A DNA stretch of 62,314 nucleotides, taken from Gemmatimonadota bacterium (lineage in GTDB: Bacteria; Gemmatimonadota; Gemmatimonadetes; Gemmatimonadales; GWC2-71-9). The translations under genes and the position numbers were made by a program. The notes beneath the pieces were generated by a model. It made no database searches and was not told where the DNA came from. It worked only from the letters and a program-made list of their open reading frames with translations. This document shows, piece by piece, positions 1,106 through 7,698 of the stretch. The number at the start of each line of letters is the position of its first letter. The stretch's first letter is position 1. The stretch covers positions 1 through 62,314 of the forward strand of contig JBGPDL010000006.1 of the NCBI GenBank assembly GCA_041482275.1, written 5' to 3'.

Positions 1106-3607
1106 TCAATGGAACTCGAGGGCTCCGATGTCGTAGCCCGCCCCCTGCGGCCGAATGATGCCGAGGAAGTCGTTCAGCACCATCGACAGAATGGCGCCGG
1201 CGTCGATGGCCGGGCTCCCGGCCTGGAGCCGGAAGTCGAGTGCCGACGGGTTCACGAACTTCGGGTCGGTATTCTCGATGTTCGAGCCCGTCCCACCCCC
1301 GCCGACCGTCCCCGTGCTGAGGTTGTGGTCGATGTGGGCGCCACTCGACGTGCCCGAAATGCCGACGTTCTGGCCCGGCAGGTAGAAGATGTTGTTCTGG
1401 ATGTACAGGTTCGTCGTCGTCGCCGCGAGAATGATCTGGCCGTCGCGGTTCGGGTTCGGGAACGCGAACGTGTTGTTCACGATGTACAGCTGGTCCACGG
1501 TCGAGCCGTAGCGCTGGATCCCCCAGCCGCGCGTGATGTTGTAGAACACGTTGTTCCGGATGATGACGTTCGTGCCGCGGCCGTTGTAGACGCCGTGGTC
1601 GTGATTCATCCAGTAGTCGTTGCCCGGCTGGCAACCGTTCTCGCCGGCAGCGAACCGCCCGATGTCGTGCACCCAGTTGCCTTCGATGATCAGGTTGTCG
1701 CTGTACGCGTCGATGGCCGACAACCCGATGCCGCTCGATTCGCAGTACCGGCCCACGTCGTGAATGTTGTTCCCGGCGATCTCGATGTCGTGGGTGCTGG
1801 TGCTCGGGTCCACGCCGTAGTGGTTCGAGCCCTTCACCTCGAACCCCTCGACGCGCACGTAATTGGCACTGATTTCGACGACGGTGCCGGAGTAGTTGTT
1901 CTGCCCGTCGAGCACCGCTCCCCACTTGTTCTGCGACTTGAACACGACCAGGTTGCCCGCGGAGCCACCCCGTCCGATGGACACGACGGCGCTGCTGCTA
2001 CCGGTGTAGACCCCGTTCCGCACGATCACCATGTCGCCCGGGTTCACGACGTCGGCGGCGTGCTGCACGGTCTGGAACGGCCGCGCGCTGTCGCCCGGAT
2101 TGCCGTCGTTGCCGGCCGCGACGTCCACGTAGTAGCACCGGCCTCCACCCGTGGGCGCGCACCCCGCCGGCGGCGGCGGCGTGCCGACCGCGATCATCGC
2201 GGTCCCGGTCTTGCCTTCCGACGTGGCGGTGATCATCGCCGTGCCGGTCGCCACCCCGCTTACGAGCCCGCTCGAGCTCACCGTCGCCGCCGCGTTGCTG
2301 TTGCTCACCCACGTCACCGTGCGCCCGGTCAATGTGTTGCCGTTCGCATCCTTGGTGGTCGCGGTGAGCTGCACGGTTTGCCCTGGCTGCACCGCCGCCG
2401 CCGCCGGGGACACCGTCACCGACGCGACGGGTGCCGCGGTCACCGTAATGGTCGCGGTGCCGCTCTTCCCTTCGCTCGTGGCCGTGACCGTGGCCGTGCC
2501 TGCGCCCCGCGCCGTGATGAGCCCACTGCCGTTCACCTTCGCGATCGTCGTATCACTCGAAGACCACGTGACGACGCGCCCCGTTAGGGGATTGCCGTTG
2601 GCATCCCGGGGCGTCGCCGTGAGCTGCACCGTCTGACCAACCTGAATGCTCGCGGACGCCGGGCTCACCGTCACCGACGCCACCGGGACAAAGGTCACTG
2701 TCACGGTGGCCGTGCCGCTCTGCCCCTCACTCGTGGCCGTGACCGTGGCCGAGCCACCGGCGCGCGCCGTGACCAGCCCACTGCCGTTCACCTTGGCGAT
2801 CGTGGTGTCGCTCGAGGACCATGTGATCACTCGACCCGACAGCGAATTGCCGTTCGCGTCCTTCGGCGTCGCGCTGAGCTGCGCCGTCTGGCCCGTCAGC
2901 AGGCTGGCGGAGGCGGGGCTCACCGTGACCGACGCGACCGGCACGTTCGAGACCGTGATCGTCGCTGTCCCGCTCTGCCCCTCGCTCGTCGCGGTGATCG
3001 TGGCCGAGCCGGTCCCGGTGCCTCTCACGAGCCCGTTGCCGTCGACGGTCACGGCCGCGGTGTTGTTGCTGGCCCACGTGACGGTCCGACCCGTCAGCGC
3101 GTTGCCAGCCGAATCGGTCGTCGTCGCCTGCAGCTGCGCCGTCGCGCCCACCAGGATCGTCGCCGCCGTCGGCGCCACGCTCACCGCGGATACCGGCATC
3201 AGCGTCACCGTGACGGTCGCAGTGTCCGACAGGCCGCCCGGATTGCTGGTCGCGACGACCCGGAATTGGCCGGTGGTCGACCCGGCCTTGTAGTGACCGT
3301 AATGGCGCTTGCCGTTGCTGCTCGTGTCGGTGATGCTGCCGCTCGTCACGCTCCAGCTCACCGTGACGCTCGCGGAGTCGCCTGTGCTCATGAACGCGAC
3401 GGCCGTGAAGTCGGCGGTCGCGTTTTGGCGCAGCGTGAGAGTCTTGGGAGAGACGAGCAGGTTGGCAACCGTTCCGCCTGGGTCGGTGACGCGGAGCGGC
3501 ATCTCGCACGCGACGATCGCCGCCGTGACGAGCACCGCCAGGGAAGCTACGACGACTCGGTCCTTCAACAGGGCCAGTCGGCACGACAGCTTGTGCTTGA
3601 ACGTCAT
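1106..3607 (-). CDS. Predicted lipoprotein with Ig-like (Big_2-type) repeats and a C-terminal right-handed beta-helix (pectin-lyase-like) domain
   Basis: Start moved to ATG 3607 (MTFKHKLSCRLALLKDR; GGAG SD); lipobox-like IVAC; one divergent plus four ~81-aa PVASVTVSP...TATSEG repeats; YYVD..GNDGNPG motif, beta-helix repeats, C-terminal GSPAIDAG...DIGALEF. Confidence 0.88.
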   Translation of the reverse strand: MTFKHKLSCRLALLKDRVVVASLAVLVTAAIVACEMPLRVTDPGGTVANLLVSPKTLTLRQNATADFTAVAFMSTGDSASVTVSWSVTSGSITDTSSNGKRHYGHYKAGSTTGQFRVVATSNPGGLSDTATVTVTLMPVSAVSVAPTAATILVGATAQLQATTTDSAGNALTGRTVTWASNNTAAVTVDGNGLVRGTGTGSATITATSEGQSGTATITVSNVPVASVTVSPASASLLTGQTAQLSATPKDANGNSLSGRVITWSSSDTTIAKVNGSGLVTARAGGSATVTATSEGQSGTATVTVTFVPVASVTVSPASASIQVGQTVQLTATPRDANGNPLTGRVVTWSSSDTTIAKVNGSGLITARGAGTATVTATSEGKSGTATITVTAAPVASVTVSPAAAAVQPGQTVQLTATTKDANGNTLTGRTVTWVSNSNAAATVSSSGLVSGVATGTAMITATSEGKTGTAMIAVGTPPPPAGCAPTGGGRCYYVDVAAGNDGNPGDSARPFQTVQHAADVVNPGDMVIVRNGVYTGSSSAVVSIGRGGSAGNLVVFKSQNKWGAVLDGQNNYSGTVVEISANYVRVEGFEVKGSNHYGVDPSTSTHDIEIAGNNIHDVGRYCESSGIGLSAIDAYSDNLIIEGNWVHDIGRFAAGENGCQPGNDYWMNHDHGVYNGRGTNVIIRNNVFYNITRGWGIQRYGSTVDQLYIVNNTFAFPNPNRDGQIILAATTTNLYIQNNIFYLPGQNVGISGTSSGAHIDHNLSTGTVGGGGTGSNIENTDPKFVNPSALDFRLQAGSPAIDAGAILSMVLNDFLGIIRPQGAGYDIGALEFH

Positions 3608-3636
3608 GGGTCTCGCTCCATGGTATGTGGTGCGCC

Positions 3637-6126
3637 TCAGGGCGTGAAGAATTCGCTCATGTCGGGCGCCGTCGCCGCAGCCCCCGGGAAGACCGTCACA
3701 CCGAGCCCCTTCAGAATGAGCCGCAGCGTGCTCTGGTGCTGGTACACGGTGGTCGACTGGTAGCCCGGCTTCGACTTCGGGCTCACGGCGACCCACGCGA
3801 CGCGTCCGCCGCCATTGGTGTTATCACCGCCCGCCTCGTCGAACACGATGATCAACAGCCCGTCCTGCTGGAACACCGGGCTGGCGAGCAGCGGCGCGAG
3901 GTTGGTCTGCAACCAGCTGTCGGCCACATCGAGGCCGCAGTCGTGCGCGTCGTTGCACAGATTGGGCACGATATTCGAGAACGCCGGCAGCGTACCGTTC
4001 GCCAGGTCGGTCGCGAACTGGGTGAACGGGACGTTGTTGCACCCCTGCCCGGTCGGGTCGTTGGCCACGTCCGAGAGCAAGGGAAAGACGTTGTGCTTGC
4101 GCGCATAGTCTCCCGTGTCCCCGCCGAGGTAGCACGCGTTCGGAATGCTCTCCGCGTACGACTTCCACGTCTTCCCCGCGGCCACCAGGCTGCGCACGAT
4201 GTTCGGCACGTTCTCGATCGTCGACGAGCCATCGTCGTTCGTGAGAATTTGGCCCGTGGCCAGCTCGAAGTAGTTCCCGATCGATGGGTGCGTATTGGCG
4301 TAGTACTGCGTCGCCAGCCCGTACTGCTGGGCCAGGCCGTTCAGATACGGCATCGACGAGTTGCCGATGACGTCCACGTAATCGGTGTTCTCCTCCGTCA
4401 CCACGAAGACGTGTCCGAACTGGGAACCGCCGCCGGTCGACGGGGTGACGGTCACCGACGCGGTGCCGCTCTTGCCCTCGCTCGTCGCCGTGATCGTCAC
4501 CGGGCCGCCCGCGGCAACGCCCCGCACGAGCCCGCTGCCGTTCACCGTGGCGACCGTTCCATCGCTCGACGACCAGGTGATCACCCGGCCGGACAGCGGA
4601 TTGCCGTTCGCATCCTTGGGGGTCGCGGTGAGCTGCAACGTGCTCCCCACCGCCACGCTCCCCGACGCCGGCGCCACCGTGACCGACGCGACCGGCACGG
4701 GCGTGACGGTGATGGACGACGTGCCGCTCTTCCCTTCGCTCGTGGCCGTGATCGTCGCCGAGCCCGCCACTTTCGCGGTCACGAGTCCGCTGCTGTTGAC
4801 GCTGGCGACCGTCGTGCTGTTGCTGGACCACGTCACCGTCCGGCCCGTCAGCACGTTGCCGTTGGCGTCCTTGAGCGTCGCGGTCAGCTGTACCGTCTGC
4901 CCCGCCTGCACGCTCGCTGACGCCGGGCTCACCGTCACCGAGGCGACCGGCACGCCCGTCACCGTGATGCTCGCGCTGCCGCTCTTGCCTTCGCTCGTGG
5001 CCGTGATCGTGGCGGATCCGACGGCCACCGCCGTCACGAGCCCGCTGCCGTCCACCGTCGCCGCGGACGTATTGTTGCTCGACCAGGTCACCACCCGGCC
5101 GGACAGCGGATTGCCGTTCGCGTCCTTCGGGGTGGCGGCGAGCTGCACCGTCTGACCGGTCACCACGCTCGCCGCGGCCGGGGTCACCGTGACCGAGGCC
5201 ACCGGGGCGTTGGCGACCGTGACGCTGGCCGTCCCGCTCTGACCCTCGCTGGTCGCCGTGATGGTGACGGGACCGCCCGCGGCCACGCCGGTCACGAGCC
5301 CGCTCGAGCTCACGCTGGCAAGGGATGTGTTGCTGCTGGACCAGGTCACCGTGCGACCGATCAACGGATTGCCGCTGGCATCCTTGGGCGTCGCGGTGAG
5401 CTGCGCCCGCTGACCCACCAGGAGGCTCGCCGACGTCGGGCTCACCGTGACCGACGACACCGGGACGTTGGAGACCGTGATGCTTGCGGTCCCACTCTGC
5501 CCTTCACTCATCGCCGTGATGGTCGCCGAGCCAGGGCCCGCGGCGGTCACCAACCCGCTGCCGCCGACCGTGGCCGCGGAGGCGTTGTCGCTGGACCACG
5601 TCACCGTCCGGCCGGTCAGCACGTTGCCGTTCGCGTCCCGCAGCGTCGCCGTCAGCTGGACCGTCTGCCCCACCAGGATATTGGGCGACGCCGGGCTTAC
5701 GCTCACCGACGCGACGGGGACGGAGCAGGCCACGCTGATGCTGGCCGAATCGGACAGGCTCCCGGGCTGACTCGTGGCCTTCAGGCTGAATTGTCCGCAG
5801 CTCGCGTTGTGGTAGTGGCCGTAGTGGCGACCGCCCGCGGAATTGGTGTCGACGGCGCCGCCCGTGGCGCTCCAGGTCACGGCGATCTGCGCCGTATCGC
5901 CGGCGGCGGTGAAGCCGACGGCCGTGAAGTCCTGGACCTGGTTGGGTTGTAGCGTGACTGCGCTGGGAGAAACGACGAGTTGGGCGACCGTCGGGTTCGG
6001 CTCGTTGATGTTGATCGGCTTCTCGCAGCTCGCGACGAACGTGAGCGGGAGCGCGAGCAGCGCGCCGCGGAGCAGACGGTCTTTGAGAAGGGCCAGACGG
6101 TGCGCCAGCTTGTGTAGGAACGTCAC
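3637..6126 (-). CDS. Predicted lipoprotein with Ig-like (Big_2-type) repeats and a C-terminal phosphoesterase (acid phosphatase-like) domain
   Basis: Start moved to GTG 6126 (GGAGG SD; MTFLHKLAHRLALLKDR); lipobox-like VASC; one divergent plus five Ig repeats; HVFVVTEEN, THPS, YARKHN and NDAHD motifs. Confidence 0.88.
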   Translation of the reverse strand: MTFLHKLAHRLALLKDRLLRGALLALPLTFVASCEKPININEPNPTVAQLVVSPSAVTLQPNQVQDFTAVGFTAAGDTAQIAVTWSATGGAVDTNSAGGRHYGHYHNASCGQFSLKATSQPGSLSDSASISVACSVPVASVSVSPASPNILVGQTVQLTATLRDANGNVLTGRTVTWSSDNASAATVGGSGLVTAAGPGSATITAMSEGQSGTASITVSNVPVSSVTVSPTSASLLVGQRAQLTATPKDASGNPLIGRTVTWSSSNTSLASVSSSGLVTGVAAGGPVTITATSEGQSGTASVTVANAPVASVTVTPAAASVVTGQTVQLAATPKDANGNPLSGRVVTWSSNNTSAATVDGSGLVTAVAVGSATITATSEGKSGSASITVTGVPVASVTVSPASASVQAGQTVQLTATLKDANGNVLTGRTVTWSSNSTTVASVNSSGLVTAKVAGSATITATSEGKSGTSSITVTPVPVASVTVAPASGSVAVGSTLQLTATPKDANGNPLSGRVITWSSSDGTVATVNGSGLVRGVAAGGPVTITATSEGKSGTASVTVTPSTGGGSQFGHVFVVTEENTDYVDVIGNSSMPYLNGLAQQYGLATQYYANTHPSIGNYFELATGQILTNDDGSSTIENVPNIVRSLVAAGKTWKSYAESIPNACYLGGDTGDYARKHNVFPLLSDVANDPTGQGCNNVPFTQFATDLANGTLPAFSNIVPNLCNDAHDCGLDVADSWLQTNLAPLLASPVFQQDGLLIIVFDEAGGDNTNGGGRVAWVAVSPKSKPGYQSTTVYQHQSTLRLILKGLGVTVFPGAAATAPDMSEFFTP

Positions 6127-6144
6127 GGCACGCCTCCACGGGCT

Positions 6145-6194
6145 AGAAACGAACGGGCCGCCAACGTCGACCCTCGTCGATCGCTGGCGGCCCG
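6145..6194 (-). terminator. Intrinsic terminator forming the riboswitch expression platform
   Basis: Transcript CGGGCCGCCAGCG-AUCGACGAGGGUCGA-CGUUGGCGGCCCG then UUCGUUUCU; its 5' arm is the aptamer's 3' strand. Confidence 0.75.
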
Positions 6195-6269
6195 GCTGGC
6201 GTGGCGGCGAACCGCCGTAGCCCCGTAGCTCTGCGTCACCGCCTTTCGGCGGTTTTGCTCTGAGCAGCG
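6182..6269 (-). ncRNA. GEMM-I (c-di-GMP-I class) riboswitch aptamer, A20 variant (candidate c-AMP-GMP sensor)
   Basis: P1 CGCUG/CAGCG; junction CUCAGA; P2 GC-AAA-ACCGCC-GAAA-GGCGGU-GAC-GC; P3 with receptor-like GCUACG...CACGC and UUCG loop; 56 nt upstream of the start codon. Confidence 0.92.
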
Positions 6270-6366: not shown

Positions 6367-7698
6367 TTACGGGTCGATGTCGACACCGACCCCGTCGCGC
6401 CGCAACCTGCCCAGCAGCCACGCCTGGACGCGCGCGGTCACTTGCACCATGCCGTCAACCTGCGTCTCTGCCAGCACTTCCGCGTCGCGATGCAGTGACG
6501 CCAGCAGCTTGCCGTCGCCCAGTGGAACATGGATCCGGGCGATCGGTCGGAGCGCCAGAGCAGAGGTCCGCAGGACGAAGCGTAGTCCTTCCACACCACC
6601 GGATTGCAGAGTGCGGGATGCGGAATGCGGAATGGACGCGGTCAGCACTGCGTGGGGGAATCGCTCCCGCACCTGGGCGAGGAACGCCTCAGGCTCCGGC
6701 AGCAAATCCGCCTTGTTGAACACATGCACGGTCCGTTGTCGCTCTCCGAGATCGGCCTCGCCCTTCCGCATTTCCGTAATTGTCTCCTCCACCACCTCCG
6801 CCTGCTGCTCCCAGCCGGGGTGCGCCGCGTCGATCACGTGGAGCAACAGGTCCGCCGCGCGTGCTTCCTCTAGGGTGGCGCGGAACGAGGCGACGAGATG
6901 ATGGGGCAGCTTACGGATGAAGCCCACCGTGTCGGTCACGCGGAAGCGGTACCCCCCCCCGACGTCCACCTCGCGGGTGAGCGTGTCGAGCGTGGCGAAC
7001 AGGCGATCCTCCACGAAAATGTCGCCGCCCGACAGCGCACGCAGCAGACTGGACTTGCCGGCGTTGGTGTACCCGACGAGCGCGGCACTCGGCAGGTCGC
7101 GGCGGCCCTGGCGCTGGTTGGCGCGATGGTCGGCGACATCCTCGAGGCGTTTCTTCAACACGGATATCTTGCGGCGGATCGCCCGGCGGTCGGTCTCGAG
7201 CTGCGTCTCACCCGGGCCCCGGAGCCCGATGCCGCCGCGGATGCGCGACAGGTGGGTCCACATGCGCGTGAGGCGCGGCAGCAGGTACTCGAGCTGCGCC
7301 AACTCGACCTGCATTTTCGCTTCGGCGGAGCGCGCGCGCGTCGCGAAGATGTCGAGAATCAGCTCGGTGCGGTCCATCACTCGCACCTCCAGCCCCTTCT
7401 CGAGATTGCTGCCCTGAACGGGCGAGAGCGGTTCGTCGAACAGCAGCAGCGTCGAGCGGGATTCCTGGAGAAGGCCCTTGAGCTCCTCCACCTTCCCCTG
7501 CCCGAGATACAGCTTGGGCGTGGGCGCATCGACCCGCTGCTGCGTCCGGCCGACGACCTCGGCACCCGCGGTGTCGGCGAGCCGGGCGAGCTCGTCCAGG
7601 TGCTCCCCCACCTGCGCCGCGTCCGCCGATCCCTTGCGCGGGGCGCCGACCAGAAACGCCCGCTCGACCGGAACCTGGATGTCAATGAGTTGTCGGAT
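6367..7698 (-). CDS. hflX: GTPase HflX (probable ATC start)
   Basis: DRTELILDIF, QVELAQL, GPGETQLE, GYTNAGKS, LFATLD, DTVGFI and NKAD motifs; conserved ERAFLV lies upstream of the first GTG (7611); GAGGAGG 8 nt before in-frame ATC 7698. Confidence 0.93.
   Translation of the reverse strand: MRQLIDIQVPVERAFLVGAPRKGSADAAQVGEHLDELARLADTAGAEVVGRTQQRVDAPTPKLYLGQGKVEELKGLLQESRSTLLLFDEPLSPVQGSNLEKGLEVRVMDRTELILDIFATRARSAEAKMQVELAQLEYLLPRLTRMWTHLSRIRGGIGLRGPGETQLETDRRAIRRKISVLKKRLEDVADHRANQRQGRRDLPSAALVGYTNAGKSSLLRALSGGDIFVEDRLFATLDTLTREVDVGGGYRFRVTDTVGFIRKLPHHLVASFRATLEEARAADLLLHVIDAAHPGWEQQAEVVEETITEMRKGEADLGERQRTVHVFNKADLLPEPEAFLAQVRERFPHAVLTASIPHSASRTLQSGGVEGLRFVLRTSALALRPIARIHVPLGDGKLLASLHRDAEVLAETQVDGMVQVTARVQAWLLGRLRRDGVGVDIDP

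Follow-up and report, generated by a model that had tools for sequence, protein, structure and literature searches.

A GEMM-I aptamer, of the family named for cyclic di-guanosine monophosphate (c-di-GMP), lies in the leader of a predicted two-gene lipoprotein operon in a 62,314-nucleotide (nt) stretch of DNA from a Gemmatimonadota bacterium (contig JBGPDL010000006.1 of assembly GCA_041482275.1; this whole stretch is the window referred to below). The aptamer is flanked by an hflX-like GTPase gene (6370-7611, minus strand) and the GTG start (6126-6124) of the first lipoprotein gene, which lie 240 nt apart. The original prediction for this leader was of a GEMM-I riboswitch at 6182-6269 in which the base equivalent to G20 of the Vibrio Vc2 aptamer is an adenine (A20), and through which the organism may use 3',3'-cyclic AMP-GMP (cGAMP) to switch on genes for surface enzymes. 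Besides A20 the aptamer carries a second, covarying change in its binding pocket, and by both it belongs to a conserved subclass with a regulon of its own. The features of the locus are as follows.

6183 to 6269, minus strand, transcribed from 6269 to 6183: GEMM-I (c-di-GMP-I family) aptamer, from RF01051, the family model R1 and covariation
6259, minus strand (T on the plus strand): A at the pocket position of Vc2 G20; model position 11, where the consensus is G
6230 to 6232, minus strand: A47-G48-A49 of J2/3, with G48 at 6231; the consensus is AAA
6187 to 6189, minus strand: C90-G91-C92, with C90 at 6189 and C92 at 6187, from the cmscan alignment
6154 to 6194, minus strand: predicted terminator hairpin, from folding, whose 5' arm (6194-6182) is the 3' strand of aptamer P3/P1 and includes C90-C92
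6145 to 6153, minus strand: U-rich tract UUCGUUUCU, 3' of the hairpin, with 6 U within 10 nt past the stem
6124 to 6137, minus strand: GGAGG Shine-Dalgarno (6137-6133) and GTG start (6126-6124) of gene 1, from the sequence
3637 to 6126, minus strand: gene 1, a lipoprotein with lipobox LTFVASC, five Big_2 repeats and a C-terminal phosphoesterase-family domain, from Pfam
1106 to 3610, minus strand: gene 2, with a paralogous lipoprotein N-terminus, four Big_2 repeats and a right-handed beta-helix, from Pfam

The identity of the aptamer, its pocket bases, its covariation, its overlap with the terminator, the content of the genes and the spread of the class are established. In a cmscan comparison of the whole window with Rfam 15, RF01051 (c-di-GMP-I) was the sole match above gathering score; it runs from 6269 to 6183 on the minus strand, spans the full model (1-87 of 87) and scores 66.4 bits against a gathering score of 35 (E 8.4e-11). 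The covariance-model search thereby confirms the GEMM-I assignment, which had been made by eye, and agrees with the bounds then given; the structural details named at that time are also present, namely the complementary ends (5' CGCUG at 6269-6265 and 3' CAGCG at 6186-6182), a GAAA loop on P2, an A at the A47 position (6232) and a C at the C92 position (6187). A covariance model of the family, R1, built from 32 copies, scores the aptamer at 82.2 bits. In an alignment of 82 distinct relatives, which was fitted to the model and hence favours the structure, 97.3% of cells are paired and both sides have changed in 14 of 18 pairs, with helices P1b and P3 backed by compensatory changes; slid-alignment controls gave 23-46% paired, and none of 500 shuffles reached any of five covariation measures. 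That the element is a relic or a chance look-alike with no regulatory role is highly improbable, given the E-value of the full-length match and the strong covariation, together with the conserved place before the same gene family and the conserved terminator design that are described below.

In canonical GEMM-I aptamers the key pocket bases are G20, A47, A48 and C92 (PMC3764141). C92 is the Watson-Crick partner of a ligand guanine, and in Vc2 a Hoogsteen pair between A48 and U90 lies beside the ligand (PMC11705072). Only A47 and C92 of this canonical set are kept at the present locus. The cmscan alignment verifies the A at the Vc2-G20 equivalent, just before GCAAA, at position 6259, and the triple of A20, A47 and C92 that marks GEMM-Ib (6259, 6232 and 6187) is present. 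Two further departures, absent from the original prediction, are G48 (6231) and C90 (6189), where the consensus has A48 and U90: the alignment sets GACGCAGAGC opposite the consensus GACGCAAAgC, at the consensus stretch GACGCAAAGC, which gives G48, and GGGCCGCC opposite the consensus GGGCUGCC, which gives C90. The two bases change together. G48 is accompanied by C90 in all 53 family copies that have it, and among the 82 relatives the 48:90 pair is AU in 38, GC in 33 and something else in 11. Two changes set the class apart from canonical GEMM-I in these alignments: G20A, and a covarying replacement of the pocket pair A48:U90 by G48:C90. Base 48 contacts the ligand in both of the solved types (PMC7288161, PMC3764141). 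With A47 and C92 retained, a ligand guanine is still to be expected at the beta site.

The size of the class was gauged in a survey of 101 family genomes, 87 of which have a GEMM-I match (including G000 and the unpublished G014 and G068). Around 150 listed matches 130 stretches were taken, 75 weaker matches and the genomes G014 and G068 being left out, and 146 GEMM-I copies from 62 genomes were aligned to the family model, with pocket bases counted by alignment column. Position 20 could then be tabulated: it is A in 75 and G in 71 of the 146 family copies, and in the bacterium's own genome (2.79 Mb, 94.7% complete), which holds three GEMM-I copies, it is A in the one described here and G in the other two. 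The class, defined by A20 with A47-G48-A49 and C90, accounts for 51 of the 146 copies; G20 with AAA is found in 69, A20 with AAA in 24 and G20 with AGA in 2, so that 51 of the 53 copies with AGA at 47-49 are A20. The GAAA loop is present in 48 of the 51 class copies. Class copies occur in 27 of the 62 genomes, and 17 of these 27 also contain G20 copies. A pattern search widened the survey to 401 Gemmatimonadota genomes and found the signature in 56 of them, the reversed pattern giving about 11 hits in all. The signature is present in 9 of 10 other genomes of the bacterium's genus, in 40 of 165 genomes of its family (f1), and in 6 of 94, 3 of 7, 4 of 70 and 1 of 4 genomes of the families f2, f4, f7 and f8, respectively. 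All 16 copies fetched from these last four families are complete and carry A20, AGA and C90-G91-C92; a single match in family f11 was rejected as not aptamer-like in appearance. Conservation in the flanks of the class, CGCUGCUCAG and GCCGCCAGC, is higher than is usual at unpaired or P1 positions.

The class also keeps company with particular genes. A lipoprotein N-terminal motif, M-x-F-x-(H/F)-K-L-S-x-R-L-A, follows 33 of the 51 class copies, 1 of the 69 G20 copies and none of the 24 other A20 copies, and Big_2 is present in 33 of 44 distinct proteins encoded downstream of class copies. G20 copies precede pilin-like genes, proteases and others, a regulon separate from that of the class. At five loci a class copy and then a G20 copy stand before one gene, always in that order, and at four loci two or three class copies are in tandem. 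Arrays and tandems are found at L053 and L055 (genome G047), L048, L049 and L018 (G100), L022 (G084) and L020 (G058); arrays of three class aptamers have a spacing of about 157 nt, and the class-then-G20 cases precede a lipoprotein gene. By alignment and gene neighbourhood, A20/G48:C90 marks off a subclass conserved in Gemmatimonadetes, which has a regulon to itself and a position of its own in tandem arrays.

Two other sets of GEMM-I copies came to light in the survey. A second A20 group, at 24 family loci (for example L129, L131, L134-L136, L138 and L141), has the form GCCCGAUAAGAGCACAC ... AGCUCGGUGCCGAA, with AAA at 47-49 and a non-GAAA loop; it precedes response-regulator, STAS-like and other genes. 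Downstream of many G20 copies, among them one of the bacterium's own genome (C3:22931-23011, L002) and its relatives L029, L068, L072, L088, L098 and L103, the longest frame starts M-S/L-G-R-R-S-P-P-R/K-G-N. The frame looks conserved; it is of doubtful reality, and a gene on the opposite strand may account for it.

The architecture of the leader suggests how the switch would operate. The segment 6194-6154 folds into a hairpin of -38.0 kcal/mol (z -5.0; 0 of 200 shuffles equally stable), which is also present in the minimum-free-energy fold of the whole leader, and a terminator-like site is predicted on the minus strand at the hairpin. Because the 5' arm of the terminator is the 3' strand of the aptamer, aptamer and terminator are mutually exclusive, so that a ligand-stabilised aptamer should let transcription proceed, that is, act as an ON switch. 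Without ligand, 6194-6182 would pair with 6166-6154 to form the 41-nt terminator hairpin, followed by UUCGUUUCU, and transcription would stop upstream of both genes. With ligand bound, the 3' strand would be sequestered in the aptamer and the terminator blocked, and RNA polymerase would proceed into the two-gene lipoprotein operon. By a rough fold criterion, the overlap of aptamer tail and terminator recurs in at least 28 of the 51 class copies, in 12 of the 69 G20 copies and in 1 of the 24 other A20 copies. A scan for promoters of the sigma-70 type found none between the hflX-like gene and the aptamer. That the leader is a functional GEMM-I ON switch for the two-gene operon can be held with high confidence, and the ON polarity in vivo, deduced from sequence, is very probable. 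The claim that the genes are switched on is in this sense upheld as probable, by virtue of a terminator that overlaps the 3' strand of the aptamer.

Gene 1 begins at the GTG codon behind its Shine-Dalgarno sequence with VTFLHKLAHRLA, which aligns with MTFLHKLA/MPFGHKLA of its relatives, and its product matches Big_2 at 5e-73, over five stretches, and Phosphoesterase (PF04185) at 3.3e-30, over residues 591-809. Gene 2 begins 26 nt past gene 1, at Met63 of the printed frame; its Big_2 match is at 1.3e-57, and that to Beta_helix is weak (1.2e-4, 22.2 bits, below the cut-off of 25.9). An asparagine-synthase-like gene comes next, beyond a 300-nt gap. Control of surface-enzyme genes, as originally proposed, agrees with an operon of two predicted Big_2 lipoproteins that end in a phosphoesterase and a beta-helix, and whose surface location we infer. 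The two genes (1106-6126) have a common lipoprotein N-terminus and Big_2 repeats, and differ in their C-terminal enzyme domains (phosphoesterase, beta-helix). Across the family, proteins with this N-terminal module end in a variety of C-terminal parts, a pattern suggestive of a modular family of surface enzymes.

The ligand of the switch is a more difficult matter. The Vc2 G20A variant binds c-di-GMP at 53 nM and cGAMP at 120 nM. Natural A20 aptamers, in which A20 is required for cGAMP recognition, are described as widely bispecific, and such aptamers bind the two ligands with similar affinities, the adenine being protonated for c-di-GMP and neutral for cGAMP (PMC6140456). As A20 alone is bispecific in Vc2 G20A and in natural aptamers, it does not suffice to establish cGAMP as the ligand. 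The reading preferred here, to which we assign a probability of about one half, is that the class is driven by c-di-GMP or is bispecific, with a shifted threshold. C-di-GMP would be bound more weakly by the class than by G20 aptamers, and 3',3'-cGAMP would also be accepted wherever it is made; the result would be a bispecific switch with a raised threshold, dedicated to a regulon of Big_2 lipoproteins. The own genome has eight Asp-type GGDEF domains to supply c-di-GMP, and the class-bearing genomes that were read can all make it.

The alternative that the class is selective for cGAMP, or prefers it, calls for a synthase. In GGDEF enzymes of the Hypr type the selectivity site is occupied by Ser or Thr (PMC9140294, PMC6456294), and non-Asp GGDEF enzymes combine GGDE[F/Y] with a non-Arg cross-dimer residue such as Tyr304 (PMC6456294). 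The own genome gave 11 GGDEF matches, of which 9 are readable at the selectivity site; 8 have Asp and 1, protein P0003, has Asn. No Ser/Thr Hypr GGDEF is present among the 9 readable domains, and a search of the same genome for SMODS gave no match. A search with PF21654 (DncV-like) found nothing in this genome and nothing in any control genome either, and is hence uninformative. Two of six readable HD-GYP domains, the set among which types were assigned, have RxxQ in place of Rxx(K/R), and Rxx(Q/N) is a reported signature of cGAMP-specific HD-GYP phosphodiesterases (bioRxiv 10.1101/600031). The three candidate genes of such a pathway in the own genome are as follows.

C34:26194-27891 (L009:298-1995): P0003, 566 residues, GGDEF protein and candidate synthase
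C14:38767-39264: HD-GYP protein with RxxQ as RAYQ
C4:34895-35383: HD-GYP protein with RxxQ as RVYQ

The expectation of a Hypr-type cGAMP synthase was therefore answered in two ways in the own genome: neither a Ser/Thr Hypr enzyme nor a SMODS protein was found there, and an Asn348/Tyr304/GGDEF enzyme and two RxxQ HD-GYP proteins were. No EAL domain was found in this genome, which is 94.7% complete, and its turnover of cyclic dinucleotides seems to be left to HD-GYP enzymes alone.

P0003 consists of two 4Fe-4S domains (Fer4), a Fe_hyd_lg_C domain that resembles a hydrogenase large subunit, a further FeS motif and the GGDEF domain, which has Asn348 at the selectivity site (placed by its spacing to N339 and GGDEF), Tyr304 at the cross-dimer site (placed by the 44-residue spacing in PMC6456294, not by structural alignment), the GGDEF motif and an RxxD I-site. 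Set against the published definition of Hypr enzymes, it has GGDE[F/Y] and the non-Arg cross-dimer residue, and lacks Ser/Thr at the position of GacA Ser348/PleD Asp344. Among 30 orthologs the selectivity site is Asn in 28 and Ser in 2, GGDEF is kept in all 30, and the cross-dimer residue is Tyr in 6, Phe in 21, Val/Ile in 2 and unaligned in 1. A sample of 80 GGDEF loci from many phyla, chosen by similarity and hence biased, links the two sites: a non-Arg/His cross-dimer residue accompanies Asn in 13 of 13 cases and Ser in 8 of 9, and Arg/His accompanies Asp in 55 of 58. P0003 is no closer to 6d9m (a T4-lysozyme/response-receiver GGDEF fusion; 2.7e-27, rank 11) than to WspR (7.8e-33). From its title we take 6d9m to be the Hypr structure of GacA, for which the eLife paper gives the id 5VS9. 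The known Hypr enzymes GacA and Bd0367 share with P0003 the lack of a selectivity-site Asp, the cross-dimer Tyr, a strict GGDEF motif and an RxxD I-site; P0003 differs from them in its Asn and in a sensor made of Fer4, Fe_hyd_lg_C and FeS parts, not Rec. The Asn-type group looks like a relative of the Hypr type, as far as its motifs tell, and falls outside the published definition. We know of no Asn-type GGDEF enzyme with a known product. P0003 itself may be a cyclase with an unusual specificity that senses redox state or H2.

Asn-type GGDEF domains were also seen outside Gemmatimonadota, at the loci L219, L220, L224, L226, L231 and L235 (Beta- and Gammaproteobacteria, Myxococcales and other metagenome-assembled genomes), with Phe, Met or Thr at the cross-dimer site, and may form a wider, unstudied class. 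Many orthologs of P0003 contain one in-frame stop (most commonly TGA, also TAG and TAA), and the open frame is still full length. Selenocysteine at these stops was considered and rejected, as all three stop codons occur and the frames are full length; the stops probably sit in an extreme N-terminal overhang of the match, without recoding.

Nine class-bearing genomes, the own genome and eight others, were read for GGDEF domains. Genomes G003 and G329 each have one Ser348/Tyr304 GGDEF domain, and G249 has one Ser348 domain with a degenerate GGAEF motif. None of G077, G311 (both single contigs), G060, G431 and G255 has Asn, Ser or Thr at the selectivity site, so that in five of the nine genomes all readable GGDEF domains are of the Asp type. 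No SMODS match above cut-off was found in the eight further genomes; at E<=0.01 there was none in G077, G060, G311 and G431, and in G255 one fragment of 24.8 bits, against a cut-off of 26.5. Genomes that have only Asp-type GGDEF domains either hold an unrecognisable cGAMP enzyme or have a class that works with c-di-GMP. RxxQ HD-GYP domains also occur elsewhere (2 of 7 in G077, 1 of 7 in G311, 1 of 5 in G431 and the 1 fetched from G060), and since they are found in genomes without a Hypr-like GGDEF, the signature fails to track a recognisable synthase.

The hydrogenase-like GGDEF protein (Hyd-GGDEF) was also followed across genomes; the 101-genome set counted here includes G014 and G068 and the 401-genome sets include G068 and G151, all unpublished, and no statement at the level of sequence rests on them. 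Full-length orthologs (E<=1e-100) are present in 87 of 101 family genomes, including G014 at 1.5e-160, and matches at E<=1e-80 in 150 of 165 f1 genomes. Family f5 has Hyd-GGDEF in 2 of 2 genomes and the class signature in 0 of 2, and f6 has them in 11 of 30 and 0 of 30, respectively; in f2, f4, f7 and f8 together Hyd-GGDEF is found in 0 of 175 genomes and the signature in 14 of 175. The second A20 group described above occurs also in genomes without Hyd-GGDEF. Within the own family, 24 of 27 class-bearing genomes have Hyd-GGDEF, which against the base rate of 87 of 101 is no enrichment. An association of Hyd-GGDEF with the riboswitch class was accordingly rejected, there being no enrichment within the family and discordance between families.

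If the class were selective for cGAMP, it would be the Gemmatimonadetes counterpart of Geobacter GEMM-Ib: the Fe-S/hydrogenase-like GGDEF enzyme would make 3',3'-cGAMP, the RxxQ HD-GYP enzymes would remove it, and the lipoprotein enzymes would be switched on without the involvement of c-di-GMP or, at tandem sites, in combination with it. This can be entertained tentatively. The pocket triple, A20 with A47 and C92, is the one found in cGAMP aptamers (PMC6140456); the G20 and A20 classes coexist with separate regulons, and there are the five tandem A20-then-G20 arrangements. On the side of the enzymes, P0003 is the sole non-Asp protein among the nine readable GGDEFs of the own genome, its orthologs obey the rule for non-Asp enzymes, GGDE[F/Y] combined with a cross-dimer residue other than Arg (PMC6456294), all 13 Asn loci of the 80-locus sample have neither Arg nor His at the cross-dimer site, two of the six own-genome HD-GYPs are of the RxxQ type reported for cGAMP (bioRxiv 10.1101/600031), and G003 and G329 each have a Ser348/Tyr304 enzyme. 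However, Asn is outside the published Hypr signature of Ser/Thr (PMC9140294, PMC6456294), five of nine class-bearing genomes have no non-Asp GGDEF (with no SMODS in four of them and the sub-threshold fragment in G255), Hyd-GGDEF and the class signature are discordant across families f2 and f4-f8, Hyd-GGDEF is at its base rate in class-bearing genomes, RxxQ HD-GYPs are found without a Hypr-like GGDEF in G077, G311 and G431, and the G48:C90 pocket is unlike that of validated members. Of the original step from A20 to cGAMP sensing, then, the base itself is real, and the conclusion drawn from it is less secure than was proposed, in view of the known bispecific A20 aptamers, a 48:90 pair unlike that of Geobacter and the five Asp-only genomes.

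The preferred reading, in which c-di-GMP drives the class with or without cGAMP, must itself contend with several observations. A20 is kept across a whole bacterial class and stands beside G20 aptamers in 17 of 27 genomes, and the two serve different regulons; the five class-then-G20 tandems are more easily explained if the two aptamers read different signals. The conserved Asn348/Tyr304 GGDEF enzyme and the two RxxQ HD-GYPs of the own genome would fit a cGAMP pathway. Lastly, G48 is at a base that contacts the ligand (PMC7288161, PMC3764141), so the binding data for Vc2 G20A may not transfer to it.

A third explanation is that the class binds another guanine-containing nucleotide, such as linear pGpG or pApG or a different cyclic dinucleotide, and represents a new ligand class of the GEMM-I fold, comparable to the orphan variants c-di-GMP-I-GGC and -UAU. 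Three key recognition bases (PMC3764141) are changed together and are near-invariant across at least five families, the combination is present in none of the 37 Geobacteraceae copies described below, the flanks CGCUGCUCAG and GCCGCCAGC are unusually conserved, and Rfam already separates GEMM-I pocket variants (RF03167). Such a ligand is nevertheless unlikely: A47, C92 and the scaffold are canonical and the RF01051 match is strong, the genomes offer no pointer to any particular alternative ligand, and conservation of the flanks may reflect double duty in the terminator. A broader proposal is that of a distinct ligand class, conserved throughout the class Gemmatimonadetes and selective for 3',3'-cGAMP or another non-c-di-GMP dinucleotide, that forms two-input gates with the downstream G20 aptamer before surface-lipoprotein genes and, in the own family, takes its signal from the Asn-type GGDEF enzyme, as a new kind of promiscuous cyclase with an Fe-S hydrogenase-like sensor. 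This scheme is doubtful; if it held, the cell surface would be coupled to the sensing of redox state or H2.

For the most part, cGAMP riboswitches have been validated in Geobacter; for GEMM-I copies of other organisms the ligand is assigned from position 20 and nothing else. Neither the A20/G48:C90 class nor Asn-type GGDEF enzymes were found described in full-text literature searches, whose scope took in neither the four founding papers nor any supplements, in which relevant tables may exist. The literature found on GEMM-Ib and Hypr GGDEF enzymes concerned Geobacter, Myxococcus and Bdellovibrio only. Searches that paired Gemmatimonadetes with riboswitch, c-di-GMP or cGAMP gave only literature judged from the listings to be unrelated, and no Gemmatimonadetes were among the entries listed for GEMM-I tandem cGAMP riboswitches. 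What the present case adds is a large, deeply conserved group of GEMM-I copies from another phylum, whose position 20 and 48:90 pair have changed in concert. If the class is bispecific, it would show in nature how pocket mutations can tune a threshold, and would caution against annotating cGAMP signalling on the strength of A20; should it be selective for cGAMP or some other ligand, signalling by dinucleotides other than c-di-GMP would extend to Gemmatimonadota, and new biosensor aptamers would be at hand. The Asn348/aromatic304 GGDEF group, whose members come from several phyla, may represent a second type of promiscuous cyclase.

Among known systems, the canonical Vc2 aptamer and its Rfam family RF01051 share with the class the three-helix junction, the GAAA tetraloop, A47 at the intercalator position and C92, the G21-C46 and C22-G45 pairs, the covariation of all helices and the leader position before surface or envelope genes. 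The class differs in having A20, not G20, in having G48:C90, not the A48-U90 Hoogsteen pair (PMC11705072), and in being tied to a single gene family, that of the Big_2 lipoproteins. Geobacter GEMM-Ib (Gs1761, Gm0970) shares with the class A20, A47 and C92, an ON switch (here a probable one) by way of a terminator, tandem copies and control of extracellular or lipoprotein genes (PMC6456294, PMC6140456). The Geobacteraceae metagenome-assembled genome G101 has 4 copies, none of the typical type. In a sample of 37 copies from 13 Geobacteraceae genomes, A20 is present in 13 copies, G48 in none and the A20/G48:C90 combination in none. Typical Geobacteraceae A20 copies (12 of the 13 sampled) read ..AAUACU[AC]AA..G[AG]CGGAAAGCC..GGG(U/A)(U/C)GCCGAA, with a C-G/U-G base of P1b, AAA at 47-49 and U90 (C in one copy). 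The rest of the validated Geobacter pocket, AAA at 47-49 and U90, is thus not matched by the AGA and C90 found here; the G21-C46/C22-G45 pairs of the class are canonical, and it is 48:90 that has changed. As G48 is absent from all 37 Geobacteraceae copies, the class is an independent A20 lineage and not the Geobacter type.

The pocket variants of Rfam, c-di-GMP-I-GGC (RF03167) and c-di-GMP-I-UAU (RF03168), which are named by positions 20/47/92, resemble the class as GEMM-I scaffolds with an altered pocket and an orphan ligand. Their changes are at 20, 47 or 92, in contrast to the A/A/C with an extra change at 48:90 that is found here; membership in either was rejected on these bases, and cmscan kept RF01051 as the best member of the clan. 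Vc2 G20A and natural bispecific A20 aptamers, such as Cbe 1-2 of Clostridium beijerinckii, likewise set A20 in a scaffold of the c-di-GMP type. They retain A48:U90 and are not described as a conserved class with a regulon of its own, in which respects the Gemmatimonadetes class differs from them.

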